A stretch of 64,000 nucleotides of DNA from a virus, in the IMG/VR virus record IMGVR_UViG_3300006098_000001; one strand, given 5' to 3'. The notes beneath the pieces are model-generated. The model did not search any database and was not told where the DNA came from. It saw nothing but the letters and a program-made list of their open reading frames with translations. This document shows, piece by piece, positions 1 through 29,487 of this stretch. The position numbers and the translations under genes are program-made. Every line of letters starts with the position of its first letter. Positions within the stretch are counted from its first letter, which is position 1.

Positions 1-608
1 ATAGGTTCTCCCAATTCGAACTCAGTCTTTCAGATCGGGAACGCGCATTGAGCGACGCCGTTCGCCAAAGATACGAAGACGACATTGTTGTAGAAGGAGT
101 TTGGCCGGTAGATATCTTTGAAGATTACGGAATTTTCAAATTCGTTAACTGGTCTAACGACAACAGACAACTGTTCCGCATCGCATACAGCGTTAATACT
201 GATGACTCAATCAAATTAGGTGATAAAACAGAGATTTTCTCAATGTATGTCACTCAAGAAGAGAAAAACAAGATTGAGGACAATCGGGCGAAATTAGCTG
301 ATTTAGAAACTAAGATCGCTGAACTTACTGAGTACAAGAACAACATTGAAATGTCTAAGAAAGAGAAGGCATTGGACGAGGTTAAGGCTTCATTAACAGC
401 TGAACAAATGAAGAATATCCGGGGCAAGTTTACAGAAATGTCTGTAGAAGACGTTGAACGAGAAATTGCCTACGCGATGTACTCAGCTAATAAACAAGAA
501 TTTACACACTCCAAGCGTGGAGGGGTTCGGACCACGAATTTCAACGCTAAGCAAGAGAGTGATTTTGGCTATGGAACGGCAGATGACCTGTTCCGTAAAC
601 GATATTAA
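1..608 (+). CDS. capsid scaffolding-like protein, 5'-partial
   Basis: The frame has no stop from nt 3 to 48, so the TTG at 48 in the ORF track is probably internal. It lies directly upstream of the decoration-like and major capsid genes. It has a central coiled-coil (KLADLETKIAELTEYKNNIE). Confidence 0.45.
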   Translation, partial: RFSQFELSLSDRERALSDAVRQRYEDDIVVEGVWPVDIFEDYGIFKFVNWSNDNRQLFRIAYSVNTDDSIKLGDKTEIFSMYVTQEEKNKIEDNRAKLADLETKIAELTEYKNNIEMSKKEKALDEVKASLTAEQMKNIRGKFTEMSVEDVEREIAYAMYSANKQEFTHSKRGGVRTTNFNAKQESDFGYGTADDLFRKRY

Positions 609-633
609 TCAAATGAGAGAAAGAGGTTAAAGA

Positions 634-1074
634 ATGGCTGAAGTTATTTTAGACAAGATTAGTGCTACTGCGCATATTGATAGCGTTGTGGCCGAAGAAG
701 ATCTAAAGAACGGTCAATGGTTAACTTTGGGCCTTCTTGATGCAGACGGTGAACGTCGTTTAGCAACAAAGGCAGCAAAGGAAGAAGAAGCAGATGTACT
801 TCTTGTAACTAGTTTTACTAAGTATGACCCTAACACAGATTTCGCAGATTACGTAACTAAGAGAGGTCAAACAGGACGTGGATTCCACATGATTTCTGGT
901 GACGTTATCTCTGTAACTAAGGATTTAGTTGCTGGAGCTAAGAAGGGTGACAGCCTAACCATTGGTGACGATGGATTAGGTTTCAAGAAGGCAGAAGGTC
1001 GCGGTATCGCTCAAATTATTGGCGAAGAAAATCAAGGCTTTTACGGCGACATGTTTGTGATCGCAATTCGCTAA
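634..1074 (+). CDS. putative head decoration / capsid-associated protein
   Basis: Good SD (GAGAGAAAGAGG) and ATG. A 146-aa ORF sits between the scaffold-like and major capsid genes. The function call is from position only. Confidence 0.35.
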   Translation: MAEVILDKISATAHIDSVVAEEDLKNGQWLTLGLLDADGERRLATKAAKEEEADVLLVTSFTKYDPNTDFADYVTKRGQTGRGFHMISGDVISVTKDLVAGAKKGDSLTIGDDGLGFKKAEGRGIAQIIGEENQGFYGDMFVIAIR

Positions 1075-1094
1075 TAAGGAAACGAGGTAAATTA

Positions 1095-2078
1095 ATGGAA
1101 AAGAATGATTTTATGAAATTTGCTCGCGACCTCTACTTCCACAAGGAATTTACAAAAGGCGAAGTTTCAGGTCAAGAAGCAATGCGTAACGCTATTTTAG
1201 ATGCTCTTGGTGGCGAATTTACCCCAACTTCATGGGGCAAGAATAAATACGATGTTTTCGAATTGATTTCAGAAGCAGTTGATGCTGTTGTTCCACGTTT
1301 GTTAACTGATCAATTTGCAAACATTGCCGATGTTCGGACAGTTGCACTTGGTGAAAAACCAATTTTCCAAGTGAAAGATCCAAAGGCTATTCGAGTTGGT
1401 CGTGTAGCTGCTGGTGACCAAGACATTCGTCGGCAAACAATTAAGGATACTCATTACTCAATTGAAACAGAAGACTTTGGTGCATCTGTATATACAGAAC
1501 TTCATCAATTCATGACTGGAACAGTTGATTGGAGCGACTTAATTGATCGGGTTGCGCAAGCTTTTACCAACCACATTCAAGCAACTATTGCAGAAGCCTT
1601 AAATGATAGTTACTCATTGCTTGACGCAACTGACAAGATTACTGGTAAAGCAACTCTTGATCAAATTGTTAAGTTAGCAGAACGAATTCAAGTTAAGTCT
1701 AACAGTAATGTAGAAGTTTACGGCACTAAGGCTGCTTTAAGTAAATTAGCAGAAATGGCTAATGTGAACCTTTACTCAGGATCAATGAAAGATGAATTAA
1801 ATCAAAAGGGCTACCTAGGTGTTGTGCGTGGCTTGAAGTTAAATGAAATTCCACAGGCATTTAAGGTTAATAAAGATGAGTTTGCCCTTGACGACAACAA
1901 GCTTTTGATCCTTCCAGAAGGTGAAAAGATTGTTGGTGTAGTCATGGAAGGTGACGCTATTACAGTTGAACCAGATTACACAGGACGTAATGATTTACAA
2001 ATGGGCTTTAAGACGATCGAACGGATTGGAATTATGGCTCTTCAAATGAAAGTGTACGGTATGGCCGACTTAGGCTAA
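1095..2078 (+). CDS. major capsid protein (putative)
   Basis: 327 aa, with an SD. It holds the canonical position after the scaffold/decoration genes. A conserved structured hairpin follows it, also seen after the tail-tube gene. Confidence 0.6.
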   Translation: MEKNDFMKFARDLYFHKEFTKGEVSGQEAMRNAILDALGGEFTPTSWGKNKYDVFELISEAVDAVVPRLLTDQFANIADVRTVALGEKPIFQVKDPKAIRVGRVAAGDQDIRRQTIKDTHYSIETEDFGASVYTELHQFMTGTVDWSDLIDRVAQAFTNHIQATIAEALNDSYSLLDATDKITGKATLDQIVKLAERIQVKSNSNVEVYGTKAALSKLAEMANVNLYSGSMKDELNQKGYLGVVRGLKLNEIPQAFKVNKDEFALDDNKLLILPEGEKIVGVVMEGDAITVEPDYTGRNDLQMGFKTIERIGIMALQMKVYGMADLG

Positions 2079-2084
2079 TCGTTT

Positions 2085-2115
2085 AGCTGAATGGGGTTCG
2101 ACTCCCTATTTAGTT
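2085..2115 (+). other. tRNA acceptor/T-arm-like minihelix, copy 1
   Basis: AGCTGAA-TGGGG-TTCGACT-CCCTA-TTTAGTT forms 12 contiguous pairs (7+5). The 7-nt loop TTCGACT fits the T-loop consensus and is closed by G-C. It covaries with the copy at 6773-6803. Confidence 0.6.
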
Positions 2116-2148
2116 GTAGTGACTAAGTACGAGAGAGAGGTTTTGAGA

Positions 2149-2712
2149 ATGTCACGTGAACAAAAGCGCCGGAAGCGCAAAATTATTGACCCCTCAACCG
2201 AAATAGTAGTGGCAAATAATACATATGGAATATTTGCTTATGAATCAAATAATGGGGCCCTTTCTTTTGTTTTGGAAGAAAACGGTGATGAAGAATATAT
2301 CACATATGCCGAAGCAAGAAAGTTAAAGAAATACTTTGAAAATATGTCTTTATTAATAATTGACGTCAACTCCGAGGAAGACATTTCAATTATGGATGTA
2401 GTTCGTGGATTGAGATTAACTGATGTTTATAAATCATATCTTGAGCTAGTTGAAGGTTTCGAAGAAGACGAGTTTGACGAAGTAGAAGCGTTATATGCAG
2501 AGGCATTAGCAGATTTCTGCTTAGACTCTGAACTTGACGACTTCAAGAAGGCATTAAAAACACCTTTAAGAAACGCAGTTATTATGACGACTGTTGAAAT
2601 GTATAAGCAACGGCGGTTATCTGATCGTGATAAACAAGACCTTGTAAATACCAGAGGTGAAGACTTCTGGGCCGATATTGATGTATCGGTTCGTGCAGCA
2701 GAAGGTCGCTAA
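2149..2712 (+). CDS. hypothetical structural-module protein (acidic)
   Basis: ATG at 2149 follows the SD GAGAGAGAGG. The GTG at 2119 in the ORF track has no SD. Confidence 0.5.
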   Translation: MSREQKRRKRKIIDPSTEIVVANNTYGIFAYESNNGALSFVLEENGDEEYITYAEARKLKKYFENMSLLIIDVNSEEDISIMDVVRGLRLTDVYKSYLELVEGFEEDEFDEVEALYAEALADFCLDSELDDFKKALKTPLRNAVIMTTVEMYKQRRLSDRDKQDLVNTRGEDFWADIDVSVRAAEGR

Positions 2713-2737
2713 ATCTTGTTTGGAAGGGGAATCTTTC

Positions 2738-3196
2738 ATGGCAAATGAGAGCAATGACCCGAAATATACATATTATGAAGAAGTCTATAAGGCGTTCTTG
2801 AATACTGTTGATTCATATGATCTTCCACGATTGGATGATGATGAATTGGCAGATGTCCTTTACGGGTATATGGACGCGGGTCGTTTGATGTTTAGCACTT
2901 ATATTGCTAAAGATTTCATGGATGATGACCCAGAAAATAAGCGTTTCAACTTTAAGATGACCAGGATTGAGATCACTCTTTTAGCCCAAGCAATGAAACT
3001 TGAATGGGTTAGGGAACACTTGAATTCCGAAGAATTGATGAGAAAAGCAATCGGTGACCGAGATTACACAACAGTGCAAGGTTATCAGTATATCGACAGA
3101 TTGCAAAATATGGAAAAGCAATTGAGCCGTGAAATTACTGCGCAAATCAATCGTTTGGAATATTCAAATTCAGAGCTCTATGGAGAAATGAAATGA
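2738..3196 (+). CDS. hypothetical head-tail connector-region protein
   Basis: ATG at 2738 follows GGAAGGGGA. The stop overlaps the next start (ATGA). Confidence 0.5.
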   Translation: MANESNDPKYTYYEEVYKAFLNTVDSYDLPRLDDDELADVLYGYMDAGRLMFSTYIAKDFMDDDPENKRFNFKMTRIEITLLAQAMKLEWVREHLNSEELMRKAIGDRDYTTVQGYQYIDRLQNMEKQLSREITAQINRLEYSNSELYGEMK

Positions 3197-4254
3197 GTAG
3201 TTTTTCAACATCTTATCGTAGAAAACAAAAAGTCCTCGGAGATAACAGGGTTACAAGAAATTATAACCGTCGACTTGAGGAATTTAATTTGTTCTATCGG
3301 GATACGTTGACAAGGCATGATTGTGTAATTGATGGTGTCCCAACGCAGGCGGTCTTTCAAGATCATTCACAAAGTAACAATAAAGATTTGTCTGATGACA
3401 AGTACGTTGTTGTCCCAAATTCAGTTGAAGTTGGTGTGGGCTCATATATTGAATGGGCGGACGAAACATGGATGGTTTTTACAGAAGAATATAAGACCAT
3501 TCCCACCCATCAACAATTAAAGATAAAGCATACGAATAGACGGCTTAAGTGGTTGACGAACAAGAACAGTAAGCTGATTTGCAACTTTGGGAAAGGTTGG
3601 CCTGCTTATGTACAGAACCAGACGCTTTATACATTAGGGGTGTCATTCGCAGGACAAAATATCGCATTAGCGAATGCAAAGATGTCTGTCTATATCAAAG
3701 ATATTCCTGAAACGCGTGCAGTTAAGGTTGGGACCAGATTATGGATAGCTGGGCAAGTCTATAAGGTTGAATTCGCTGACTACGTATCAAGACCGGGATT
3801 AGTTAACTGGTTATTAGACGAAGATACAAAGAATCCGGAAACCGATAATTCTGACTTAGAAATAGCTGATTATTGGAATTCTGGAGGTAAAGACGAAGAT
3901 GATTCCATAAAAGACGTATCTAAGTCGACTGTGCCTACAAACGGCTCTGGCAGCAGCCATTCTGAGGACGAAAAGCCGAAAGCTGAATGGAACATCGAAG
4001 GAACAATTAAAGCTCGCCTAGGGCATACCTATGTCTATACAGCGATGAATTCTGATGGAACTAAGGCAGATGTCTCCGAATGGATGATTGGAACCCTTGA
4101 AGACTCTCCATTTTATGTAAAAGAAAAAGATAATCATAGCATTACTGTGACCGTGAAAGACATCTATAAGCTAGTTGGACAAACAGTAACAATCACAGCA
4201 AAAGCCAATGACGAAATAAAAAATATTGCAATAAAAATTATAAAGAAGTTCTAG
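3193..4254 (+). CDS. structural protein with a C-terminal Ig-like domain
   Basis: Translationally coupled start. The C-terminal ~90 aa has a beta-sandwich-like pattern (HSITVTVKD...GQTVTITAKAND). Confidence 0.4.
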   Translation: MSSFSTSYRRKQKVLGDNRVTRNYNRRLEEFNLFYRDTLTRHDCVIDGVPTQAVFQDHSQSNNKDLSDDKYVVVPNSVEVGVGSYIEWADETWMVFTEEYKTIPTHQQLKIKHTNRRLKWLTNKNSKLICNFGKGWPAYVQNQTLYTLGVSFAGQNIALANAKMSVYIKDIPETRAVKVGTRLWIAGQVYKVEFADYVSRPGLVNWLLDEDTKNPETDNSDLEIADYWNSGGKDEDDSIKDVSKSTVPTNGSGSSHSEDEKPKAEWNIEGTIKARLGHTYVYTAMNSDGTKADVSEWMIGTLEDSPFYVKEKDNHSITVTVKDIYKLVGQTVTITAKANDEIKNIAIKIIKKF

Positions 4255-4257
4255 GGA

Positions 4258-4821
4258 GTGAATGAGAGAGTGCCCGCAAAGGAAATTACAAATGAGGCTC
4301 CAAAACATGTGTCTTCAGTTATGAAGATTAGTGAGTGGAAACAGCAAATGATGGAAACAATGGCAATGGATGATGATTTAGCAAAATTACTTTATTATGA
4401 CTCATCTGATGCATTAAGCCGTCCTGATTTAACCGAGGAGCAAAAATATGAACTGGTAACAGAGGGAGAAGAAAAGCGTCGGATTTATCCAACAAGATAT
4501 AAGCCTGGGGTCGTTATGGACCAGCAATCATTTATTGGTATGGCAATTTCTAATTTCTCATTTCCAGAAATTCATTATCACGTAGATAGTGATTTCGTGA
4601 TGGGGTACTTATACTTCTTTATCCTTGTTGATAACAAAATTATGGATATCGATGAAGGACAAAGGCAAGATCAAATACTCGCTAGAATTTATGACTTATT
4701 CTCCGATTCTAGAAGATACGGAATCGGGACTGTAAAAATTGGCCAACTTTCCGAATTATGGGAGCAAAACAATAAGTTTGGCGGCTACCAACTAATGATG
4801 AGAGTATACGACTTTAAGTAA
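4258..4821 (+). CDS. putative head-tail joining / tail completion protein
   Basis: ORF in the connector region. The start is uncertain (GTG 4258 or 4270). Confidence 0.35.
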   Translation: MNERVPAKEITNEAPKHVSSVMKISEWKQQMMETMAMDDDLAKLLYYDSSDALSRPDLTEEQKYELVTEGEEKRRIYPTRYKPGVVMDQQSFIGMAISNFSFPEIHYHVDSDFVMGYLYFFILVDNKIMDIDEGQRQDQILARIYDLFSDSRRYGIGTVKIGQLSELWEQNNKFGGYQLMMRVYDFK

Positions 4822-4833
4822 AGGACGTCTGCT

Positions 4834-5637
4834 ATGAGAATTAACTATTCTTACGTGATTCTCGGGAAAGATATACCCATAAACGATAAGGTAACTTTTC
4901 ATATTCCCACAATTGGCGAACTAGCAGAAGCAGAAAACAATGACTTTAGTGATTGTACTCGTGTTTTTGTAACAGGGGTTCGGGAACAATTTAGTGGTGT
5001 TCCTGAGCAGGTTGATCTGATAGAAGAAAGATTCCCGTCTCTATGGGATATGGCTTTTGACGATGAAATGAATGACCTTGTTGGAGAGGCCATGTTTGGT
5101 AAGGGCGCTACTTTATTACGACAATTTTTGAAAGCGATTTCGTACTGGACTAGGACGAAAGAAGAACAGTACAAAATCCTGAGTAATAAAAAGATCGTAA
5201 GCGAAGAACTGGATTGGATTATCGACAGGGAAACATACATTGACCTATCCAACCTAATCAAAGCAGTTACTTTGTCAAAGCCCAATAGGGATTTGATTGC
5301 ACCCAAGGGTGTGGGAAGTAATCCGAGAAAGATTCAAATGTGGAAAAACACATACAAAGGTCGATTACAACAAGCCATGAAAAGAAAAGGAACGGAATTA
5401 GGAGATCAAATCCTTCAGCTAGAAGTATTTGCGCCTGGATACATTAGCTTTGCTGATATTCAAGGTATGACCTACTACCAGTTTTCAAATCTTTTATCTG
5501 CTTACACCGCTAAGTATTCATCAGAAAAACAGTATCAGATTTACACATCAGAAAAGTTCGATACGAAAGATATGAAGATGCCTGATCTAAACGAAGAAAT
5601 AAAACTAATCAAATTTGATGAAAAAAATAAAGACTAA
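4834..5637 (+). CDS. hypothetical structural-module protein
   Basis: 267-aa ORF directly upstream of the major tail gene. Confidence 0.4.
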   Translation: MRINYSYVILGKDIPINDKVTFHIPTIGELAEAENNDFSDCTRVFVTGVREQFSGVPEQVDLIEERFPSLWDMAFDDEMNDLVGEAMFGKGATLLRQFLKAISYWTRTKEEQYKILSNKKIVSEELDWIIDRETYIDLSNLIKAVTLSKPNRDLIAPKGVGSNPRKIQMWKNTYKGRLQQAMKRKGTELGDQILQLEVFAPGYISFADIQGMTYYQFSNLLSAYTAKYSSEKQYQIYTSEKFDTKDMKMPDLNEEIKLIKFDEKNKD

Positions 5638-5660
5638 ATACGAAAGGAGACATTGATTAT

Positions 5661-6767
5661 ATGTCTACTTATGGTTTGAAGGATGCGTCAAATATCACAT
5701 TTGTAAAGCGTGGTACTACTACTCCCGTTTTATACATTGATTACGCAAACCAAACAAATACTCAATGGCAATCTAACCGTGTATATGCCAAGAAGAAGGG
5801 TACACAAGCAATTGCATGGGACTCTGCACGGACTGGTAAGTTAACCATTCAAACTGAAATGTTTGATCTTCGGCTCTTAGCAATGATGGCCGGTGATGAT
5901 GACTTACATAAGGGAACAAACACTATCTTTAAGCGAAAAGTATTCCAATTACGAGGAGATCGCTTAATTGATTTAGGCGCAAAGCCAGTTGAAGGTTCTG
6001 TATCTGTGTTCCGTGTAGACGACAAGGATAAGCGTGAACACATTACTGAAATCCCTATGTTAGTTTCTGGAGACGCTGGTTCAGTTCCACAAATGGTAAC
6101 TGATGTTGCTGTTTCTGCCAAGGATACAACTGCAACAATTACTTGGAGTTCTACAGCCAATGCAACTAGTTATGTTGTTTACCGAAATGGAGTAGCTACT
6201 GGATACCCTGTTGGTACTTCATTTAACGACTCAAACTTAACTCCTGAAACAGAATACAAGTACACAGTTGTTGCTAAGAATGAGGCAGGACAATCAGTTC
6301 AATCTGCTGAAGTAGTTATTACTACTGCTACATCAGGTACTAAAGAGGCCGGCGCTGCTGTTAAGGCAACTGAAGATGCAATCAAGAAGGCACAAGAAAA
6401 TGCTAGTGGGGCCAACTTAAATGGCTTGTACTTCAAGATGACTGATGGTGGAAACGGAATTCAACTTTCTGATGAAGCCGTTGTCGGTGCTGCTTACGCA
6501 GTGTACTACGTTGTAAAGCAAGACGGTGTATCTTCCTACACTATCAATGCACTTAAGTTTGCAACTAACTACGAAATTTACGCCGATGCCGTAATTCGTT
6601 CCCAAGACGGTGAAGATAAGTTTGCGCAAATTCACTTTACTAATGTAAAGCCCGCTGCAAATGTAACATTCAACCAAAACTCAGAACAAGTAACTTCCCT
6701 TTCATTAGAATTTGACTTGTTAGCTGATGAAAATAACGACCAAGCTATTTACGAATACATCGAATAG
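5661..6767 (+). CDS. major tail (tube) protein with an internal FN3 domain
   Basis: SD GAAAGGAG. A clear FN3 module is present (ATITWSSTANATSYVVYRNG...ETEYKYTVVAKNEAGQS). The same minihelix seen after the capsid gene follows, then a terminator. Confidence 0.55.
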   Translation: MSTYGLKDASNITFVKRGTTTPVLYIDYANQTNTQWQSNRVYAKKKGTQAIAWDSARTGKLTIQTEMFDLRLLAMMAGDDDLHKGTNTIFKRKVFQLRGDRLIDLGAKPVEGSVSVFRVDDKDKREHITEIPMLVSGDAGSVPQMVTDVAVSAKDTTATITWSSTANATSYVVYRNGVATGYPVGTSFNDSNLTPETEYKYTVVAKNEAGQSVQSAEVVITTATSGTKEAGAAVKATEDAIKKAQENASGANLNGLYFKMTDGGNGIQLSDEAVVGAAYAVYYVVKQDGVSSYTINALKFATNYEIYADAVIRSQDGEDKFAQIHFTNVKPAANVTFNQNSEQVTSLSLEFDLLADENNDQAIYEYIE

Positions 6768-6772
6768 CTATT

Positions 6773-6803
6773 AGCTGGATGGGGTTCGACTCCCCATTCA
6801 GCT
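6773..6803 (+). other. tRNA acceptor/T-arm-like minihelix, copy 2
   Basis: AGCTGGA-TGGGG-TTCGACT-CCCCA-TTCAGCT forms 12 pairs. All four differences from copy 1 preserve pairing. Confidence 0.6.
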
Positions 6804-6856
6804 TTCAACTAAGTAGATTAAATTAATCCATTTATACGGTTATGAATGGACAGAAA

Positions 6857-6882
6857 GTCCGAAACCTCGGGCTTTATTTTTT
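6857..6882 (+). terminator. rho-independent terminator
   Basis: GTCCGA-AACC-TCGGGC stem-loop followed by TTTATTTTTT. Confidence 0.7.
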
Positions 6883-6919
6883 CAAGAATTTATAGATTTT
6901 ACAAAAAGGGGAATCGTTG

Positions 6920-9900
6920 ATGGAGAAAACGATTAAGTATTTAGAAAACGGAGAATACCATTATGCTACAGTTCGCTCTGTTGGTGATTTGGCACAATTA
7001 AAGACTGATTCAAAGGAAACACTTGTCGAAGCCATCAACGAGCTCTGGAATGGTGGAGGTAATGCTGATCCAAGTAAAGCACCAAAACCAGAAGGCTATG
7101 ACCAATTAGTTCAAGATGTTGCTGATGCTGTAAAGAATCAACAAGAAATCAGTCAACAATGGATTGAGTGGCAAAACGAAGAAGCTCAATTAACGGAAGA
7201 ACGAAAACAAGCTTATCTTCAAGCAATGAAAGAAATGCAAGAAGCCATTGATAAGGCTAAAGCAGATGCAGCGGCTCTTGATGATAAGACAGCTAAATTG
7301 GACGAACAAATTACTAAGACCTTTAGTGATCTTGATACATCAATCCAAAATATGCATGAACAGCTTCAAAAAGAAGCAGATCGCATGAATAAAGATTTAC
7401 AAGACACTAAGGGAACCTTGTCAACCCTTCGTACCGATTTGCAAAATACGCAAATGGATAATGGGAAAATTCATGACGAGCTAACTAATATTAATGGGAA
7501 ATTTGAACACAAAGTTTGGCAAACAGATTTGGATCCATTAAAGGAGCAGATCGACAGAGCAGAAACCAGTGTTCAACAGACCAAAGATGAGTTACTTGGA
7601 AAGGCGAGTCGTCAAGACCTAGATACAGTAAGTAACACTGTTTCTAAGCTTGATACGCAACTGAAAGAAACCGCTAAAGGTGTAGAAATCAGCGTTAAGA
7701 AAGCTGAACTTGGTGGTGAAATCGCTGAGGCGCTGACTAATAAAACGAACATTTTACTAGGTACAAGAAGATTCACTACTAATAACTGGCAGCAACGAGA
7801 GCATGTTGAAATATGTAGCGATCCTTGGAAGGGATTCTTAGTAGCTAAGCAAAATAGTCCAATTGAGGGTATCCAACAAGCTTATGAAGCAAAAGCTGGA
7901 ACTACCTATACCTTTAGTCTTTTTGCAAAGATGGATACTTTGGACGATAGTAGCAAACCGCAAATTATTCTTGCCAAGAATAACCTTGATACTAGTCTAG
8001 ATACCAAAATTGATGTATGGCGTAAAGAAATTGATGATATTACCTCTGATTTCAAGAGATATGATTTGACCTTTACCCCAAGTGAAGATTGCACAATTTA
8101 TCCTCATGTTATATCAAATAGCAATAATCCTATATTCGTTTGTGGCTATCAGCTAGAAATTGGAAAGATATCAACTCCATGGGAACCTAATCAAGAAGAT
8201 GTTGGTGATTACGTAGAAAAGTCTGAGGCGCAATTCAATGTCTATAATGATAAGATTCAAGCCCTAACTGAAAAACAACGCCAACAAGGTGATACCCAAG
8301 AAAAGTTACGAACAGAAGTCACTCAGACAGCCGAGGGAACTCGACAAGTATCTGAAAATCTTAAAAAGACTAATGATGATATCACTAAACTTCGTGGCGA
8401 ATTTGAAGTAAAAGCGGATCACATGAAGTCTGAGTATGAGACTTATACGAATAAAGCTGTAGGTCAAATCAGTGATAGTACATTGAATCTTATTAGAAAT
8501 AGTTCATTCCAAAATAAAGATAGCGATTTTGACCAATGGCAAAATATAAGTGCTAAAGCTAATGTTCGCTCAGATGAGAATGGGCTACGTTGGGTTGAAC
8601 TAACTCAATCAGGATTAACAACTAATAATCCTGAAGGAATTACGAGTAACTACTTTAATATCAAACAAGGTAAGGTTACTGTTGCCGTCGATATTAAGAG
8701 TGGTGACAAAGCGAGTTTAGATAATGATTCGGTTCTTTCGCTAGAACTTTACAACGATGTAAAAAAACGTGTGGACTTCTACGATGTTTCTTTATCACAA
8801 TTGGGGTTAAGCAAAGAATTGCTTGGCGACCACAAGGTTCATAGAGGATTATACCGATTAGGTATTGATCGCAATGATGCTAAATATATGACAGTCAAAG
8901 CTAAATTAGTAAAAAATGGTGATTTATACTTTACTAATTTCTCTGCAAGATTGTCTTCGATTGACGATGGAGCTTATGAGCCCAATCCAGATGACTTAAA
9001 TCAACAAATTCTTAAACAGAATACAAAGATTGAACAGAATGCTAAAGAAGTAGCCATTAAGGCTAATTCAGTTGATGTAACAAGGGATATTAAAAGTGCT
9101 GTTGAAAATAATAATGGTGGGGGAGTTAATCTTTTAAAAGGGACGAAAGATTTTCGACCAGACAGTATATGGTTTCCATTAGGTGCATGGGTTAGAACTA
9201 ATGATACCTACAATGACCTAACGATATTTAAAGGAAAATCAACAGAAGATTGGAATGGTCTAACCCAATATTATTCGGTAAAAGCTGGCGAAACTTATAC
9301 GTTTAGCTTAAATGCTCGATATGAATCCGGCTCTGGTTCATCTGCGCTATACATTATGTTACACGAAGATCCCGAAAATGGGCATAAGGCAGCAAAGGTA
9401 TCTCCATGGTCACGTGATATTACTCTGAATGAAAACTGGCAAAGATATAGTATCACATTTACTGTGAATTCTGATGGTTATATCAAACCAAGAATTGAAC
9501 GAGGATCCCATAATAAGAATGTACTAGAAATTTGTGGGCTTAAGCTAGAGCGAGGGACAGTTGCTACTCCATGGACCCCGGCATCCGAGGACACTTCCAC
9601 TGAAATCAAATCGGCAAAAGATGCCGCAATTCAAGTAGCTAGTGACCAAATTAATCTTCATGTTAACGAAATATCCACTCAATTTGATGATAAGTTAAAT
9701 AGACGAATCAATGAACAAAAAACGGCCAGTGAAAAGTTCACGTCCGATGGTATTGAGCAGGTCGTAACTAAGGTTACTAATGTAAAGAATGATGTTGATA
9801 GATTGGGAGATAATCTACGTAATACGGGTTCACGGAATCTTCTTCATAATACAAGTGATCAGTGGAGAACTTTAACTAATAACAATGACTGGCTACAACA

Positions 9901-12900
9901 GACAACAGCATCTTCTTGTTGGACTTCTACTTCTGATTACCATGGCGGGAATAAATTTACTTATGCTGCGAAGATTACTAATAATAGCCATCAACAAGCT
10001 GAATTAGAAATTTGGTTATGTGATCAGAATAAGAATTTCATTAATGGGCAAGCATTCCATGCTCCTATTCCTAAAGGTGCGAATGCTTATGATGTGAATG
10101 TTACATTTCCGATTACGACAGGAACTTGGTATATAAGAAGTTGGATTATCTTTACGGGCGGACACGCCCCTAAAGGAGATATTGTTCAGGTTAAAGATGA
10201 ACGTTTGGTTGAGGGGGTCGCTCCCGGGAGTTGGTCACCTAATCCTGAAGATATTAACCAACAGATTACTAATACTAATAAAAAGATTGATACCCAAACA
10301 CTTGACTCAGCCAATATAGATAATATGCGTACCCAGGGTCATTACTTTGTAAGAAATCTTTCTGGAAATCCTATCGGCGGATGGGTCTATGTTGATGTGA
10401 CTGGTAACAATAATAATCGTGTGCGGCAAGATGTTTATGCTGACCAAAATAATCAACATAAATATAGATCATGGAATGGATCAAGATGGTCCGATTGGGA
10501 ACAAGGCGCTTATTTAAGTGATGTTAAAACTGAAGTTACTGCTTCGGTTAAGAATCTTGGAGATAGAGTTACAACTGAAGTCAATTCAGTTACAAGTAAG
10601 ATTAATAATGTTGACGGTAAAGTCAACAATCTGAAAATAGGTGGCCGGAACTTACTAAAAGGCACTCGTGACTTCAATAGTAAGTATTGGTATCAAAGTG
10701 GAGATCATACTGCGTTAGCTGATAACTCTACAGATCCGTCCACCAAAGAGCTCCATAGTTGGCTAGATTGGCACAGTTATAAAAATAATCAAACTATTCA
10801 GTTAGATCCATCGAAGAATTATATGATTAGTGCTGATATTGCGATTTATGGTGGTGACGGTAATGGATTATATGTTACTCCATATGGAACGGTAGACGGA
10901 CAGGGGAGCAATTTAGTTGGCACAGATGTTAACTTAGCTGGATTCCCTAGACAGGTTAAAGGCGAAGGATTTCGACGAATTTATCTTCCTGTGACGGCAC
11001 ATGGACGAACCTTAAAAGATTTTCGTATCGAAGGGCATGGTAATTGGAACGCAGGTAGTGGCTCAGTATTTATTTCTAAAATTGCGCTTTACGAGGGTAA
11101 TACTCCAATGGCATGGTCGGATTCTTCAGATGATTTTGTTGAAGCCATTAAGGAGGTTAATACCAAATGGGACGTTGCTAACGGTCAAATTCAAGGTAAG
11201 GTAACGGCCACGGATGTAAATAATATTCTAAACGGCAAGGGATATGCTACACAGTCATGGGCACAAACGATGTTCCAAATGAAAAGCGATTCCATTACTT
11301 TGCAGGCTGTTAGAGATAATATTACGAATGGAATTCAGAACCAGGTAAATAGTATTAATAACCGTGTAACGAATGCTCAAATTGGGGAACGTAATTTAGC
11401 GGTTGGAACTAATCGAGGAAAAGCTGGATGGTGGGTCGATCCAGGAAATGGAACAGCAAGTACAGATATAGCACTTCTAAATGGTGTCAAAGGTCTTCAT
11501 ATAAATAATACAAAGAAAAGTACATCTTGGTGGGTTGTTTGTTACCCCTTTGATATGGGGAAATTAAAACCGAATACTTATTACACAATAAGCTTTGACA
11601 TACAAACGAGTGAAAACACCAATGGTGGAGCAATAATTGACCTTGCAAGAGGTAATTCATCTGGTAGTCCTTTTATTGAAGGACGAGGCGGGAACATTAC
11701 GACCCGTGGTGGAGAAATTACTCATATAACTCGCACTTTAAAGACAGGCGCAAGTATAGAAAATAATGGGCAAGCTCTATATATAAATAGTATAGCTTTT
11801 GGTAGCTCTAATGTAGTTAACATTGCTAATTTAATGATTGTTGAAGGTACACAAAGTTCTGTTTGGAAACCAGCTCCAGAAGACCAAGGTAGTGGACAAA
11901 ATCTTTTAAGAGGTACAGCTGATTTCAGTTGGCCTACTGGAATAGGAATGAATAATTCATTCGAATTTAATTATGAGCGTTTTGATGATTCTACTATTGC
12001 CATGCATCTTTGGAATATAAAAAGTAATGGTACGGGTATTTACACCAAATGGGGTGGAGCCTTCCCAGATGGACAGATACAAGTCGGTGAACAATATACA
12101 TTCTCATTTGATGTAAAAGGTTCAGGAAAGTTTCTAACTGTAAAAAATGAAAGCGAACCTGGAAAAGGCATGCTTACGCTAGATGGAGTAAATGTCCCTA
12201 GCGAATGGGCTAGAGTGTCAGTTGCAGGAACAATTCAGGCACTCGATAAAGCATTTATTATTTATTTCGCACAAGGCGCTAATGTTTGGATAAAGAATGT
12301 AAAGATTGAACGAGGGGCGATTGCTACTCCTTGGACACCACACCCGTTTGATGATAAAGACAAAGGTGTAAATCTTCTTAAGTCTACTGCCTATTGGAAT
12401 CCAGCTGACTGGAACCATATTAGTAATAATGTCTGGTATGACGATGGTTGGGTAGATAGTAGTGGACATAAAGCGTATGGACATCATACAGCATGGCAGG
12501 GATTAGGGCAGACCGTATATGTAACTCAGGGTGTTTATACATGGAGTGCCAAGATATATCTGAACGGTTTAGATAGCAATGATTTTGTGTATCCTTATAT
12601 GGGTGATGGTCAATATAATGGTACAGCACAAGTTCAAGATATACGAAAGCCTATGCTGGGAGTTAATGACCAAAATCGATGGATTGATTATAGTACAACC
12701 TTTTATGTTAAAAATGCGGGCAATCTATGTGTAAGACCAGAATTAAATCGAGATCATGGGAACATTCATGTTGGCTCTCAGAAATTAGAACATGGAATGG
12801 TTGCGACTCCGTGGAGCCCTTCCCCATTAGATGATAAGAATGCGACAATAACTCTTGATTCCGCAGATATTAATAGCATGAAGACACAGGGGCATTACTT

Positions 12901-14080
12901 TGTTAGAAACTTAGCAAATAGTCCAATAGCTGGTTGGGTTTATGTTGATGTCACTGGTAACAATAATAATCGCTTGAAACAAGAGGTTTATCAAGACAAT
13001 GGCTATGAACATAGATCCAGACGATGGACTGGTAGGGGTTGGACTGAGTGGACAACAGATGTAAACAATAAAAATGTTGTTTCGCAAATTAATATCACCC
13101 CAGATCAGATTAAGATTGCTTCAAATAAGATTGTTATTGATGGTAATACTGATATTCATGGTGATTTAAGAACTGATAGAGTACGCCTTGTTGGGAAAAA
13201 TGGGGCTATTGATATGACTGGTGACACTGGTATAAAGCTAACCAACAACGATGGAAGTTCGATGTTATTAGGACGTGGAAATATTGATTTAATGTACAAA
13301 AATGATTTCCGAATGAATATTGATAGTTCTTTGATGACAATCATGCAAAGGAATCAATTTACTGGTCAAAATAAACCGATGGCTATTTTAAATATTGGAG
13401 CATCTTGGAACCATAGCTATGAAAAGATACGCGGAGCGGATATTAGATATAATCCTGGAAATGTTAATGATGTTAATTTACATGGCGCAGATTATCTAGC
13501 TCTAAGTTATAATAGACCAAATTTCATACCAGGAGAGGCCAATATTCATCCTCAGCTTGTAATGGCATATCAAGACCTTAAGTTTGATGAAAATCACTAT
13601 CTATGGCGTAAAGGAGTCAATGTAGCCGATGATTTAACTATTCAGGAATATCAAAGAATTAATGTTGGGTACAGAGATAAGGAAGATCAGAGTGGAAAAT
13701 GGACCAACGATCCATTGATGATTCATCGAATGCAATGGGGAGTTTCTTCTCAAGCTGATCGCTATCAACCAACAGTAAGACTTGGCTATAGCAAAGACAG
13801 TATGGGGAGTGCAGGAGTAACCTTTCTATGGAATCAAGTAAAGCCCTTTGGGAATATGGATATAAGTGATTTAGGAGAAATTTTGTTTAATGGACAAAGA
13901 TTTGTCTTTGGTTGGGCTAGTCATGAAAGAATGTTTAATAACCAGAATCAACCAGCGTTTATGAGACTCGATGATAAAGGCGGAATTATGTCTGGAATAG
14001 CATTTACTCCCGGATCAACATGGGATTTAGGATCAGGAGCATGGAATATTACAGCATCGGTAATGAATCATGGGGGTTAA
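6920..14080 (+). CDS. giant tail fibre / host-recognition protein (2,386 aa)
   Basis: ATG 6920 lies 7 nt after AAAGGGGA. The N-terminus carries the fibre anchor motif LVEAINEL and about 200 aa of coiled-coil. About 8 jelly-roll/CBM-like modules each end in a (K/Q)LE.G..ATPW.P.P.D-type motif. Two pyocin-knob-like domains are present. Confidence 0.65.
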   Translation: MEKTIKYLENGEYHYATVRSVGDLAQLKTDSKETLVEAINELWNGGGNADPSKAPKPEGYDQLVQDVADAVKNQQEISQQWIEWQNEEAQLTEERKQAYLQAMKEMQEAIDKAKADAAALDDKTAKLDEQITKTFSDLDTSIQNMHEQLQKEADRMNKDLQDTKGTLSTLRTDLQNTQMDNGKIHDELTNINGKFEHKVWQTDLDPLKEQIDRAETSVQQTKDELLGKASRQDLDTVSNTVSKLDTQLKETAKGVEISVKKAELGGEIAEALTNKTNILLGTRRFTTNNWQQREHVEICSDPWKGFLVAKQNSPIEGIQQAYEAKAGTTYTFSLFAKMDTLDDSSKPQIILAKNNLDTSLDTKIDVWRKEIDDITSDFKRYDLTFTPSEDCTIYPHVISNSNNPIFVCGYQLEIGKISTPWEPNQEDVGDYVEKSEAQFNVYNDKIQALTEKQRQQGDTQEKLRTEVTQTAEGTRQVSENLKKTNDDITKLRGEFEVKADHMKSEYETYTNKAVGQISDSTLNLIRNSSFQNKDSDFDQWQNISAKANVRSDENGLRWVELTQSGLTTNNPEGITSNYFNIKQGKVTVAVDIKSGDKASLDNDSVLSLELYNDVKKRVDFYDVSLSQLGLSKELLGDHKVHRGLYRLGIDRNDAKYMTVKAKLVKNGDLYFTNFSARLSSIDDGAYEPNPDDLNQQILKQNTKIEQNAKEVAIKANSVDVTRDIKSAVENNNGGGVNLLKGTKDFRPDSIWFPLGAWVRTNDTYNDLTIFKGKSTEDWNGLTQYYSVKAGETYTFSLNARYESGSGSSALYIMLHEDPENGHKAAKVSPWSRDITLNENWQRYSITFTVNSDGYIKPRIERGSHNKNVLEICGLKLERGTVATPWTPASEDTSTEIKSAKDAAIQVASDQINLHVNEISTQFDDKLNRRINEQKTASEKFTSDGIEQVVTKVTNVKNDVDRLGDNLRNTGSRNLLHNTSDQWRTLTNNNDWLQQTTASSCWTSTSDYHGGNKFTYAAKITNNSHQQAELEIWLCDQNKNFINGQAFHAPIPKGANAYDVNVTFPITTGTWYIRSWIIFTGGHAPKGDIVQVKDERLVEGVAPGSWSPNPEDINQQITNTNKKIDTQTLDSANIDNMRTQGHYFVRNLSGNPIGGWVYVDVTGNNNNRVRQDVYADQNNQHKYRSWNGSRWSDWEQGAYLSDVKTEVTASVKNLGDRVTTEVNSVTSKINNVDGKVNNLKIGGRNLLKGTRDFNSKYWYQSGDHTALADNSTDPSTKELHSWLDWHSYKNNQTIQLDPSKNYMISADIAIYGGDGNGLYVTPYGTVDGQGSNLVGTDVNLAGFPRQVKGEGFRRIYLPVTAHGRTLKDFRIEGHGNWNAGSGSVFISKIALYEGNTPMAWSDSSDDFVEAIKEVNTKWDVANGQIQGKVTATDVNNILNGKGYATQSWAQTMFQMKSDSITLQAVRDNITNGIQNQVNSINNRVTNAQIGERNLAVGTNRGKAGWWVDPGNGTASTDIALLNGVKGLHINNTKKSTSWWVVCYPFDMGKLKPNTYYTISFDIQTSENTNGGAIIDLARGNSSGSPFIEGRGGNITTRGGEITHITRTLKTGASIENNGQALYINSIAFGSSNVVNIANLMIVEGTQSSVWKPAPEDQGSGQNLLRGTADFSWPTGIGMNNSFEFNYERFDDSTIAMHLWNIKSNGTGIYTKWGGAFPDGQIQVGEQYTFSFDVKGSGKFLTVKNESEPGKGMLTLDGVNVPSEWARVSVAGTIQALDKAFIIYFAQGANVWIKNVKIERGAIATPWTPHPFDDKDKGVNLLKSTAYWNPADWNHISNNVWYDDGWVDSSGHKAYGHHTAWQGLGQTVYVTQGVYTWSAKIYLNGLDSNDFVYPYMGDGQYNGTAQVQDIRKPMLGVNDQNRWIDYSTTFYVKNAGNLCVRPELNRDHGNIHVGSQKLEHGMVATPWSPSPLDDKNATITLDSADINSMKTQGHYFVRNLANSPIAGWVYVDVTGNNNNRLKQEVYQDNGYEHRSRRWTGRGWTEWTTDVNNKNVVSQINITPDQIKIASNKIVIDGNTDIHGDLRTDRVRLVGKNGAIDMTGDTGIKLTNNDGSSMLLGRGNIDLMYKNDFRMNIDSSLMTIMQRNQFTGQNKPMAILNIGASWNHSYEKIRGADIRYNPGNVNDVNLHGADYLALSYNRPNFIPGEANIHPQLVMAYQDLKFDENHYLWRKGVNVADDLTIQEYQRINVGYRDKEDQSGKWTNDPLMIHRMQWGVSSQADRYQPTVRLGYSKDSMGSAGVTFLWNQVKPFGNMDISDLGEILFNGQRFVFGWASHERMFNNQNQPAFMRLDDKGGIMSGIAFTPGSTWDLGSGAWNITASVMNHGG
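10298..10507 (+). repeat. knob-like domain, copy 1, inside the giant fibre
   Basis: TLDSANIDNMRTQGHYFVRNLSGNPIGGWVYVDVTGNNNNRVRQDVY...RWSDWEQ is paralogous to 12851-13060. Confidence 0.6.
12851..13060 (+). repeat. knob-like domain, copy 2, inside the giant fibre
   Basis: TLDSADINSMKTQGHYFVRNLANSPIAGWVYVDVTGNNNNRLKQEVY...GWTEWTT. Confidence 0.6.
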
Positions 14081-14086
14081 AAATAT

Positions 14087-14404
14087 ATGTATAAAGTAGT
14101 GCGGCTTGTTAAGACAATTAAAGATAATGACGGAAATAACATAGCTACAATTCAAGTAGATTTAAATGGAGACGGATCAACACCAGATCCTTTGACTGCA
14201 ATATATGGTTCTGCTCAAATTATAGGATTTAATGACGATGGATCTCCAATCTATGACATGGAAATTAAACAGCGGATTAAAGATGAGAAGCAAAAATTTA
14301 TGGCAGAAGCTATAAAAGAACAAAAAAAGTTATGCATTGAGAATGGTGTGGACCCAGATTTAGTCAACATCTTAAATGCTGAAAAGAAGGTAAATAATGA
14401 ATAA
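14087..14404 (+). CDS. hypothetical protein
   Basis: SD GGGGG, ATG, 105 aa. Confidence 0.4.
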   Translation: MYKVVRLVKTIKDNDGNNIATIQVDLNGDGSTPDPLTAIYGSAQIIGFNDDGSPIYDMEIKQRIKDEKQKFMAEAIKEQKKLCIENGVDPDLVNILNAEKKVNNE

Positions 14405-14609
14405 TCAACGACAAGCGCCCGGAAAAGGTGAAAAAGTAGCAAGTAAGTTAATTAATAAATTGGCGTTAACAGAACTGGAATTAGCTAATCGTGAAGTTGA
14501 TATTGATGAACTTAACGAAAAAATTCAACAACTAACTCAAGCTAATCAACAACTCTCTGCTGAAAATCAACAACTTAAAAGTAAACAAGAAACTAAAACA
14601 GAAGAATAA
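14397..14609 (+). CDS. small coiled-coil protein
   Basis: Overlapping start. Heptad-rich sequence (ELNEKIQQLTQANQQLSAENQQLKSK). Confidence 0.4.
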   Translation: MNNQRQAPGKGEKVASKLINKLALTELELANREVDIDELNEKIQQLTQANQQLSAENQQLKSKQETKTEE

Positions 14610-14630
14610 GAAGAAAAGGGGAATATTAGC

Positions 14631-14909
14631 ATGGCTTTACGCAAAACTAAATCAACATCATTAACTGGTGAATCAGTAATCAATGGCACTACTGTTGTGC
14701 GCATGACTGCTAGTTTATCAACGAGCGGTGGTTCAGACTCGGTAAATCAGTATGTCCAAAATGTAGACTTATATAACGCAAACAAGCGAGACGTGCGTAA
14801 GGATATCTCTGCATTTCAAGAATATGTATATGAGCAACAAGATGCTATTGACGCAGAACTTGAAGCTGATAAGGAAGCTGCCGATTCTGAAAAGAAAGAA
14901 GCTAAATAA
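14631..14909 (+). CDS. hypothetical protein
   Basis: SD AAAAGGGGA, ATG, 92 aa. Confidence 0.4.
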   Translation: MALRKTKSTSLTGESVINGTTVVRMTASLSTSGGSDSVNQYVQNVDLYNANKRDVRKDISAFQEYVYEQQDAIDAELEADKEAADSEKKEAK

Positions 14910-15008
14910 AACAAGGCTTTTACCAGCATATTTGGTTTTCGAGAACGCCTAATATACTGGATATTTCGTCGCCTAAGAAATTCACAGTTCCTTAATTGAG
15001 GGGCGGCC

Positions 15009-27838: not shown

Positions 27839-29470
27839 TTGACGCAACCAATACTAAATCAGGCGTCTAATTACGATGCGAAGAACTCATATACATTCAC
27901 ATTTACGTATTTGGGCGCAGAGCATACGACAACGAATACATTATCAATTCGTGAAGATGGTCCAGGAACAAAACCTGTCTACGAAAAGGATCAAGTGTCG
28001 CTAGATAAAAACCACATTTTACCAGCAAAAACTCTGAACAATGGTACGGCATATCTAGCAAAAGTTCGCGTTAAACTCAAAGATGGCTATTCTGAGTGGT
28101 CACCAGAGATTAAATTTACGTGTTATACAACACCACGAATTCTATTTGATACGATTGACCAACATCAATTTATCTATACGAATGATGTATTAATGTCGGC
28201 TATTTATACGCAAGCACAAAATGAGCCTGTTACGTCATATCAATATACTCTTTACGATCAAAGACATGTTGCTTTAGTTAAATATCCAATTCGGAAGCCG
28301 GAAAGAAATTCTCCAACAAGATTTTCAGAACGTGTTTCAAATATAAAAAAAGGTAAATTATATTACATTGGATTGAAGGTAGTAACAGAGCACGGAATTA
28401 TTTATGAGCAACTTCAAGAATTTACCGCTCAATATATCACGCCATCTGTATCGGGTATTATTCAGCCAACAATGAATAAAGATGACGGACAAATAGTTGT
28501 TGACCTTTTCCTAAAACAATTGTTAGGAACGTCAGCTCGTGCTTACATTCCTCATCGTAAAAATGATAATGCTGATAACTATACATATTGGAAAGATGAT
28601 TATGTCTTTGTCCCAAAAGAAAACCCTTTGATTTATACCAAGTTAGCGATGGCGAAAGCGAGTGATTGGATCGGAAAGTTCTGGGTAATGAATGTTCAGA
28701 ATGGATTATTCCTAGACTTCTCGCCAGCCGAAGATAGAGGACAGCATATAAAGTTCTATAAACATGATGATTATATTACCTGTGAAAAAGAATTTGGACA
28801 GATTAAATCCAGAACACGGTCTAATGTAATTAAGGATTTAAAACTGCGTCCTTTCTATATGTTTGTATATGTTAAGGAATATCGAGTTGAAATAAAGATA
28901 GTTCCTGATCAGACATTCAAAGATGATGATTGGAATGAAGAGTTATCCAAAGAAGAATTGTCTCAGTACGGTGAAATAACTAAAGAAACTCAACAAATGA
29001 TAGATGCAGCAGAAGCGAAAATTAACGCTGCAAGACAAAGGCTTCAACAAATCCACGATGAACATTGGCAACAATACATCACCAAGGTAGAGCAAGCAAT
29101 ATCAGACGCTAGAGCACGTATTTTAGGGCAAAATGAACTACGCGATCGAGTGATGGAAATTGACGACCAATATTGGGACTACTTTGAAAATACTGAAATG
29201 GTCAACTACTGGAAAGAATTAGCAAAGGCGGAACGTGAGTCCGAAGCCAAGTATGAAATCTATCGTACCGAATATGAGCAAAGAATTAATGAAACTTTAT
29301 CAGAAATTAAAAGTGGTGCTATGACGCTTGATGATGGACGTTTGAAGTTAACTCAATATAGCCTTGTGTATAGCTTTATTTTACGTGAAGTCATTGATTT
29401 TAACGATACGAAGCTAACATTAGATGGACTTCAAGAGCTCTACGATGAATATTTACAAAAATATAAATAG
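27839..29470 (+). CDS. tail-tip/baseplate protein with a C-terminal coiled-coil
   Basis: TTG at 27839 lies 9 nt after AAAGGAG. The ORF-track start at 27776 falls inside the hairpin repeat. Confidence 0.35.
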   Translation: MTQPILNQASNYDAKNSYTFTFTYLGAEHTTTNTLSIREDGPGTKPVYEKDQVSLDKNHILPAKTLNNGTAYLAKVRVKLKDGYSEWSPEIKFTCYTTPRILFDTIDQHQFIYTNDVLMSAIYTQAQNEPVTSYQYTLYDQRHVALVKYPIRKPERNSPTRFSERVSNIKKGKLYYIGLKVVTEHGIIYEQLQEFTAQYITPSVSGIIQPTMNKDDGQIVVDLFLKQLLGTSARAYIPHRKNDNADNYTYWKDDYVFVPKENPLIYTKLAMAKASDWIGKFWVMNVQNGLFLDFSPAEDRGQHIKFYKHDDYITCEKEFGQIKSRTRSNVIKDLKLRPFYMFVYVKEYRVEIKIVPDQTFKDDDWNEELSKEELSQYGEITKETQQMIDAAEAKINAARQRLQQIHDEHWQQYITKVEQAISDARARILGQNELRDRVMEIDDQYWDYFENTEMVNYWKELAKAERESEAKYEIYRTEYEQRINETLSEIKSGAMTLDDGRLKLTQYSLVYSFILREVIDFNDTKLTLDGLQELYDEYLQKYK

Positions 29471-29487
29471 TAAAGAGGTGAGAGTTT

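Follow-up and report, generated by a model that had tools for sequence, protein, structure and literature searches.

The DNA considered here is the 64,000-nucleotide (nt) IMG/VR virus record IMGVR_UViG_3300006098_000001, and the whole of this stretch is called the window below. It carries two 31-nt hairpins which look like the acceptor stem and the T-arm of transfer RNA (tRNA) stacked on each other; one lies just after a major-capsid-like gene and the other just after a tail-tube-like gene. These minihelices may act as tRNA-mimic punctuation signals in the late messenger RNA (mRNA). The window sequence is part of a Limosilactobacillus reuteri phage-plasmid of approximately 130-140 kb: it is 92-95% identical to p53608_1 (LN906635.1) and NZ_CP065541.1, the latter showing 94.7% identity across window 1000-8000, and in the annotation of NZ_CP065541.1 the plasmid genes ParM and RepA stand beside terminase, tape measure and holin. 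A near-identical phage was not found in INPHARED. In the tRNA numbering used throughout, +1 is the first base of the helix, 73 the discriminator-equivalent base and 74-76 the bases downstream of it. The two elements are composed as follows.

2085-2115, + strand: minihelix copy 1, AGCTGAA-TGGGG-TTCGACT-CCCTA-TTTAGTT
2085-2091 with 2109-2115, + strand: acceptor-like stem of copy 1, 7 base pairs (bp)
2092-2096 with 2104-2108, + strand: T-stem of copy 1, 5 bp
2097-2103, + strand: T-loop of copy 1, UUCGACU
2116-2118, + strand: 3' flank of copy 1 (G73, U74, A75), no CCA; RNase Z is predicted to cut after 2116
6773-6803, + strand: minihelix copy 2, AGCTGGA-TGGGG-TTCGACT-CCCCA-TTCAGCT
6773-6779 with 6797-6803, + strand: acceptor-like stem of copy 2, 7 bp
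6780-6784 with 6792-6796, + strand: T-stem of copy 2, 5 bp
6785-6791, + strand: T-loop of copy 2, UUCGACU
6804-6806, + strand: 3' flank of copy 2 (U73, U74, U75)

The first-pass annotation of this DNA had described 7 + 5 contiguous base pairs closing a TTCGACT loop, a second copy after the tail gene at 6773-6803 and four stem differences between the copies, all of them pair-preserving. Sequence and fold agree with the first two points, and comparison of the copies with the third: one A-U pair has become G.U and three G.U pairs have become G-C. Copy 1 has a folding energy of -14.4 kcal/mol (z = -4.3) with 11 pairs in the minimum free energy structure, in which A1-U72 is open, and copy 2 reaches -20.7 kcal/mol (z = -5.0) with 12 pairs; 0/200 shuffled sequences fold as stably. 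The reverse complement of copy 1 fails to fold (-4.2 kcal/mol, z = -0.5), since A.C takes the place of each of its three G.U pairs. The core GGGGTTCGACTCCC is found at these two places and nowhere else in the 64-kb window, where 0.06 occurrences are expected. Covariance model R1 (L. reuteri family, filters off) matched only the two copies in the whole window, with 47.7 bits for copy 1 and 51 bits for copy 2, the next best score being 14.9 bits for the antisense of copy 2; under model R2 the copies score 42.7 and 44.4 bits respectively. The element had also been said not to be a tRNA, and this holds: ARAGORN calls no tRNA in the 64-kb window, and in both copies the 5' acceptor strand abuts the T-stem directly. 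A canonical tRNA or transfer-messenger RNA (tmRNA) was rejected on the ARAGORN result, with 0 genes in the window. No Rfam family reached its gathering threshold in the window and five related loci. Below threshold, mascRNA-menRNA (RF01684) matched copy 2 with 17.8 bits against the required 42.5, and the tmRNA model aligned through its T-arm alone with 10-13 bits.

Relatives of the window were taken from IMG/VR and GTDB loci retrieved through capsid homology, with capsid identities from 99% down to 55%. In all of them the capsid stop is closely followed by a minihelix, and in most the second one after the tail gene is kept as well. Their stems diverge yet pair, as in AATTAGG-GTGGG / CCCAC-TCTAATT, ACATGAT-AAAGG / CCTTT-GTCATGT and AGATTGG-GTGGG / CCCAC-TTAATCT. 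Among the 13 distinct sequences of the L. reuteri family 98.7% of cells are paired and both sides have changed at 8/12 pairs; when the 3' partner is slid by 1-3 columns as a control, pairing falls to 45-58%. The covariance-model search of related phages that had been suggested earlier succeeds, and the claim of a selected RNA structure is now carried by covariation far exceeding what two copies could show. At greater distance other structures occupy the site, namely a plain 6-bp hairpin in an L. mali relative (54% capsid identity) and an ordinary terminator in a relative with 26% capsid identity.

The same design of 12 bp and a 7-nt loop, which ARAGORN does not call and Rfam does not contain, is met elsewhere among phages. 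When IMG/VR was scanned with a pattern, the matches comprised true tRNAs, attachment fragments from the 3' half of tRNA-Met, and non-tRNA minihelices on unrelated contigs. DUF3277 (phrog_280) denotes the tail-tube genes of a myovirus group, placed after the sheath gene, and 33/34 DUF3277 loci obtained by protein homology have a downstream minihelix with 7+5 bp and a 7-nt loop (TTCGACT, TTCAACT, TTCGATT, TCCAACT or TGCAACT), located either 3-13 nt past the stop or 42-68 nt past it behind a normal terminator. In Lactobacillus phage LBR48 the minihelix lies at 35043-35073, 4 nt after the tube stop. Phages of S. thermophilus carry copies within an approximately 400-nt untranslated region ahead of an ArpU-type late regulator; the flanking gene, phrog_1814, is found in 336 INPHARED records, the first copy overlaps its stop codon, and Sfi21 and TP-778L have two copies each. 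This set comprises 43 sense-strand model matches (33 loci, 19 distinct). A TP901-1-type major tail gene (phrog_238, L339) is followed by a minihelix 4 nt later and by a tail chaperone gene 30 nt further, and additional copies stand 56-131 nt downstream of late-activator genes. When the lineages are pooled (31 sequences), both sides have changed at 10/12 pairs and 98.1% of cells are paired, a percentage inflated by the DUF3277 part, where copies were picked by best pairing within 110 nt; T-loop sequence and U74 are unaffected, since they were not selected for. The earlier view that the motif marks the ends of the two most abundant structural mRNAs is too narrow, as the motif is also found by late-activator genes, sometimes downstream of a terminator, and in the tRNA cluster of a phage-plasmid. 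In the literature no description was found of tRNA-like minihelices in phages or prophages, of phage late mRNA being cleaved by RNase Z or RNase P, or of tRNA-like elements in S. thermophilus phages.

The pooled sequences keep G52, G53, U54, C56, A58, U60, C61, C62 and U74 without exception and U55 and C59 in at least 90%, and position 57 is always a purine (G or A). The invariant columns are the universal T-arm signature of tRNA, and the T-arm motif is present in full: a 5-bp stem closed by G53-C61 and the loop U54-U55-C56-R57-A58-N-N. The flanks were counted in 48 distinct copies belonging to three sets retrieved through protein homology, so the counts are free of DNA search-pattern bias. 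Position 74 is U in 48/48 copies and CCA stands at 74-76 in none of the 48; a Watson-Crick pair between -1 and 73 is likewise found in 0/48, so that the helix is held at exactly 12 bp. The sense orientation is seen in 47 of the 48, and on the opposite strand many of the G.U pairs would read as A.C mismatches. Bases 73 and -1 are variable, and +1 is A in 28/48. In family 1, the window-type copies, the 8 nt downstream contain a mean of 2.8 T, which is background level, and its U74 is thus not part of a U-tract. As a separate observation, a G2.U71 wobble is over-represented, occurring in 15/31 (A4) and 13/19 (A5) distinct sequences together with A1-U72 or G1-C72.

The genes and the terminator around the window copies are the following.

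1095-2078, + strand: major-capsid-like open reading frame (ORF), 327 amino acids (aa), stop 6 nt before copy 1
5661-6767, + strand: tail-tube-like ORF, 368 aa, with an FN3 insertion, stop 5 nt before copy 2
6854-6882, + strand: Rho-independent terminator, 9-bp stem then AUUUUUU, 50 nt after minihelix 2

The first-pass annotation had named these ORFs major capsid and major tail genes. The first name stands, with a match to phrog_4088 (E = 6e-97) and, in tblastn, approximately 30% identity over 98% of the length to major capsid proteins of large Bacillus siphoviruses, the annotated major capsid proteins scoring E = 1e-37 to 1e-45. Pfam was uninformative for the capsid and neighbouring ORFs, and a PDB sequence search with the capsid-like ORF gave no match. 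The second name is likely and less firm: residues 250-362 of the tail ORF match the solved tail-tube proteins 8k98_A and 9jgh_A with E of about 1e-4, an FN3 domain lies at residues 148-219, phrog_2729 and phrog_7440 are matched, and the position is syntenic with the gene preceding the tail-chaperone genes of relatives. Copy 1 is operon-internal, and the ribosome-binding site (RBS) of the next gene begins 15 nt downstream. The 3' flanks of the window copies, GUAGUGAC and UUUCAACU, have no U-tract, and a terminator scan flags just a sub-hairpin inside copy 1. The sole convincing intergenic intrinsic terminator on the + strand of window 1-15000 is that at 6854-6882. An intrinsic terminator as explanation of the window copies was rejected for lack of a U-tract and because the real terminator is found at 6854-6882.

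More distant phages show what else can stand at these positions. Bacillus vB_BcoS-136, Staphylococcus SPbeta-like 2 and Lactococcus PMBT69 are syntenic and have hairpins with U-tracts, that is terminators, at both slots, and in vB_BcoS-136 these features carry the annotation 'terminator'; the covariance model gives no match in the three genomes. Listeria B054 and Aeribacillus AP45 have plain terminators where LBR48 has its minihelix. The occurrence of terminators at both positions in distant phages indicates that the minihelices occupy slots for 3'-end-forming hairpins.

Concerning the enzymes, PMC10100781 (citing Pellegrini et al. 2012) describes B. subtilis RNase Z as processing CCA-less precursors, with an endonuclease activity that rises approximately 200-fold when a U lies no further than 2 nt from the discriminator. 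The tRNA genes of Streptococcaceae are all without an encoded CCA, and there the RNase Z cut falls right after the discriminator (PMC8549757). Sequence and structural traits of a CCA-less RNase Z precursor are seen in the minihelices: a 12-bp coaxial helix (98% of cells paired), no CCA and U74. Of the traits of an RNase P substrate the acceptor/T-arm stack, the T-loop and the unpaired 5' leader are there, the 3' RCCA is absent, and the preference for U(-1)/G(+1) is not reflected in the 48 copies, with their mostly A at +1 and variable -1. The tRNA-like domain of tmRNA is not reproduced, with 3:70 being C-G in most copies and G3.U70 in none, and the elements do not fall among the viral tRNA-like structures.

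NZ_CP065541.1 has six tRNA genes (Arg-tct, Trp-cca twice, Asn-gtt, Ile-tat and Phe-aaa) and a tmRNA gene with the tag ANNHRVTALAA in a region (L347:29145-33640, approximately 121.8-126.3 kb) that has no counterpart in the window. All seven genes are CCA-less; hence RNase Z, RNase P and the CCA-adding enzyme of the host must serve transcripts of this type of element. The tmRNA loop is UUCGACU, as in the minihelices, and this loop is absent from the six tRNAs. The cluster also contains a weaker third minihelix (29464-29497, 25.9 bits) and hairpins made of a T-arm only.

The first-pass annotation had proposed a 3'-end stabiliser or a substrate of RNase P, RNase Z or the CCA-adding enzyme, and this proposal gains indirect support from the invariant U74, the lack of CCA, the helix length of exactly 12 bp and the terminators found at the same slots in distant relatives. 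The reading preferred here, with a probability of about 50% as judged from sequence, is that the minihelix is a tRNA-mimic punctuation signal which is cut by RNase Z, possibly also by RNase P and then CCA-tailed, and which fixes stable mRNA ends. The minihelices in the late structural transcript would mimic the 'top half' of a CCA-less precursor tRNA, in which acceptor stem and T-arm are stacked coaxially, and the 12-bp helix with its T-loop would be recognised by the tRNA-maturation enzymes of the host. RNase Z, stimulated by U74, would cut after the discriminator-equivalent base (G2116 and U6804), leaving the capsid or tail-tube cistron with a 12-bp helix and a 1-nt overhang at its end, which the CCA-adding enzyme could extend to NCCA; such a 3' end would be a poor substrate for 3' exonucleases. 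The downstream RNA would gain a 5'-monophosphate end and then decay or be translated independently. In net effect the abundant virion proteins would be expressed independently of the low-copy genes that follow, a task for which related phages appear to use leaky terminators. A cut by RNase P at +1 is also possible; it would leave a flush 5' helix on the downstream RNA and would fit the layouts behind a terminator or in a 5' untranslated region. Cutting by both enzymes would set free an RNA of approximately 32 nt.

The punctuation reading presupposes that bacterial RNase Z cuts a bare minihelix efficiently, as reported from in-vitro work. Several points weigh against the reading. U74 is present in just 4/7 of the genuine tRNA and tmRNA genes of NZ_CP065541.1 and is thus not obligatory for true substrates, and a few loops (UGCAACU, UCCAACU) lack U55. 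A role as stabiliser of the upstream 3' end alone does not explain the DUF3277 subgroup with the minihelix behind a terminator, nor the placement before the ArpU gene in S. thermophilus phages. In the latter phages chimeric or truncated copies occur as well, and in phage 2972, which is a poor model for this reason, copy 1 has been destroyed by a 16-nt deletion with loss of its 3' half, and the second copy retains 5/7 acceptor pairs. Further imperfect copies are tolerated, L008 having a C bulge and L002/L004 showing a C.U mismatch. Some copies are followed by a U-tract (LBR48, L150, L167 and L339) and may simply be terminators or double as such. Finally, the terminator 50 nt after copy 2 could stabilise the 3' end by itself.

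The same structure might be read from its other side, with RNase P as the relevant enzyme, cutting 5' of +1 so that the flush 12-bp helix shields the downstream mRNA from 5'-end-dependent decay by RNase J1 and RNase Y and serves as its 5' stabiliser. RNase P is classically known to need no more of its substrate than a 12-bp acceptor/T stack and a T-loop, base -1 is never Watson-Crick paired with 73, and the layouts behind a terminator or 5' of ArpU and other genes suit the downstream message better. The idea is nevertheless considered rather unlikely, for it leaves the invariant U74 unexplained, the mostly A at +1 and the variable -1 are unlike the preference of the enzyme, CCA is missing for the P15-type interaction, the capsid and tail-tube messages would lose any 3' structure, and copy 2 precedes a terminator and not a gene in need of protection. 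One may also do without tRNA enzymes and regard the minihelix as a passive hairpin, an exonuclease block or a weak attenuator or terminator, in which the T-loop is merely a compact stable loop. There would then be no reason for the fixed 7+5 bp, the T-loop residues, the unextended helix and U74 in at least four unrelated lineages, and the window copies are without a U-tract, copy 1 being operon-internal; these points make the passive hairpin fairly improbable, even though distant relatives have ordinary terminators at the same positions, the four copies named above have a U-tract and the L. mali relative has its plain 6-bp hairpin.

Mimicry of the T-arm and acceptor could also serve binding, either as a site of the TruB/TrmA type or, after release and CCA tailing, as a decoy or sponge for tRNA-binding factors or toxins. 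The universal T-loop residues are kept, the dominant loop UUCGACU is that of the tmRNA of the related phage-plasmid and not that of its six tRNAs, the Rfam matches to the tmRNA T-arm and mascRNA, although weak, point the same way, and a site after the most highly expressed genes would give a high copy number. In the acceptor end, on the other hand, the variable discriminator and the missing G3.U70 leave no aminoacylation identity or protein-recognition code visible, U55 is replaced in some copies and no link to any defence system is seen, so that binding as the function is regarded as quite improbable. A slim chance is given to a further version, in which RNase P and RNase Z release a 32-nt CCA-tailed small RNA, a phage 'mascRNA', whose abundance tracks the capsid or tail message and which acts in trans; the trans roles suggested in it, for example drawing off host factors or anti-phage toxins which recognise or modify the acceptor ends of tRNA, or mimicking tmRNA or the T-arm, are given no greater chance. 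Were it true, it would mean a new class of phage RNA for counter-defence or manipulation of translation. That the element is a decaying tRNA remnant, a DNA-level site (attachment, recombination or insertion-sequence target) or a stimulator of frameshifting or readthrough is very improbable and largely refuted. It is true that tRNA 3'-half attachment fragments (AGCTTGT..ACTTGCT) with 10/12 positions paired came up in the same scans and that in three relatives an IS605-type TnpB element lies nearby; against this, compensatory changes maintain the helix, the G.U pairs and the sense orientation indicate RNA, and in no tRNA gene fragment does the acceptor 5' strand run straight into the T-stem, as it does here. 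The attachment-site or tRNA-Met 3'-half fragment was rejected as a candidate, since its 10/12 pairs are due to chance and the fragment includes an anticodon loop. As for recoding, in the window the +1 frame continues past the capsid stop and reaches the next gene, but the distance from stop to helix ranges over 5-31 nt and no frame beyond the stop is kept open across relatives; with neither spacing nor extended frame conserved in relatives, a frameshift or readthrough stimulator was rejected.

Compared with known systems, the punctuation reading comes closest in function to mitochondrial tRNA punctuation with plant t-elements and to MALAT1/mascRNA, and closest in structure to laboratory minihelices. 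Mitochondrial punctuation and t-elements likewise place a tRNA-shaped structure by coding regions in polycistronic RNA, and the definition of mRNA ends by RNase P and RNase Z, as proposed here, would be alike; the mitochondrial cases are full tRNAs or cloverleaf-like and organellar, whereas here a 31-nt acceptor/T-arm half in DNA phages of Firmicutes would be cleaved. The mascRNA of MALAT1 and its MEN-beta counterpart (RF01684) form a tRNA-like 3' module which is processed by RNase P and RNase Z and CCA-tailed, a fate that may be shared by the phage element. RF01684 aligns to copy 2 via acceptor and T-arm alone, and mascRNA differs in being a eukaryotic cloverleaf-like RNA whose upstream RNA is guarded by a triple helix. 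Minihelix substrates used in vitro with RNase P, tRNase Z, the CCA-adding enzyme and some aminoacyl-tRNA synthetases have an identical architecture of 7 bp, 5 bp and a 7-nt T-loop; they are constructs usually ending in NCCA, whereas the phage elements are natural, conserved, embedded in mRNA and followed by N-U-W. With the CCA-less pre-tRNAs and tmRNA of Firmicutes the minihelix shares the lack of an encoded CCA, the U after the discriminator and the canonical T-arm, and it differs in having no D arm, anticodon arm, variable region or G3.U70, so neither decoding nor charging is predictable. Intrinsic terminators and 3' stabiliser hairpins of related phages occupy the same positions in the gene order and likely have the same outcome, more upstream than downstream message; unlike them, the window copies have no U-tract, and a fixed 12-bp length and a T-loop would be needless for a terminator. 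Signals for tRNA-like processing in mRNAs are already known, and what appears to be new is the form restricted to the top half and its occurrence in phages of Firmicutes.

If the minihelices are cut by tRNA-maturation enzymes, phages of lactic acid bacteria punctuate their late polycistronic mRNAs with a 31-nt tRNA 'top half', which would give phages or bacteria an equivalent of tRNA punctuation in mitochondria and of the MALAT1/mascRNA signal. These mRNAs would then be among the very few natural RNAs other than tRNA that RNase Z and RNase P of Firmicutes act on, and the separation of capsid and tail-tube messages from those of low-copy genes without a terminator would be explained. The element could in that case also serve as a ready minimal tag for processing when RNA is engineered in Gram-positive bacteria. 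It is a compact and easily modelled motif for annotation, and currently it is unannotated in LBR48, Sfi21 and TP-778L.

Two further features adjoin the window copies.

2119-2123 and 2151-2155, + strand: invariant GUGAC and its possible pairing partner GUCAC, a 5-bp stem in the consensus fold
6827-6850, + strand: second hairpin, 10 bp, UCCAUUUAUA-CGGU-UAUGAAUGGA, between minihelix 2 and the terminator

GUGAC lies 3 nt past the discriminator-equivalent base of copy 1, and its stem with GUCAC, which overlaps the AUG (2149-2151), would enclose the next gene's RBS (2131-2140) and this AUG. Both motifs are kept in six diverged relatives with invariant bases and no covariation, and the modelled stem is uncertain. 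The hairpin at 6827-6850 recurs nearly identically downstream of the tail copy in L001-L006, L018, L019 and L026 and is almost invariant in relatives down to 66% capsid identity, again without covariation; a protein might bind there, or the hairpin could belong to a small RNA derived from the 3' untranslated region and freed by cleavage at the minihelix.

Some minor observations concern rearrangements around the elements. In three relatives an IS200/IS605-type TnpB element is inserted approximately 27 nt downstream of the capsid minihelix, in the RBS of the next gene, and the minihelix is intact (L029:21275-22450, which is NZ_CP065541.1, and, at ~9030, L002/L013 and L003/L014). The tail copy of NZ_CP065541.1 (L029:27246-27290) has the 3' flank GTAGTGACTAAG, typical of the capsid copy, and the two copies of this element differ by a single base; together these features suggest gene conversion between them. 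A single chimeric minihelix is present in the S. thermophilus phage contigs L195, L196, L199, L202, L208, L219 and L221 (at ~2081-2236), its 5' strand coming from the first copy, its T-arm and 3' strand from the second, with a mismatched acceptor stem. The sequence suggests that the two copies recombined with loss of the spacer of approximately 100-165 nt. Downstream of the late-activator gene of LBR48 (L188) there is, at ~20010-20070, an unannotated tRNA-like sequence with acceptor, D and T arms and no anticodon arm, and adjacent to it ARAGORN calls a CCA-less suppressor-type tRNA with the anticodon UUA (20150-20224), which is likewise unannotated.

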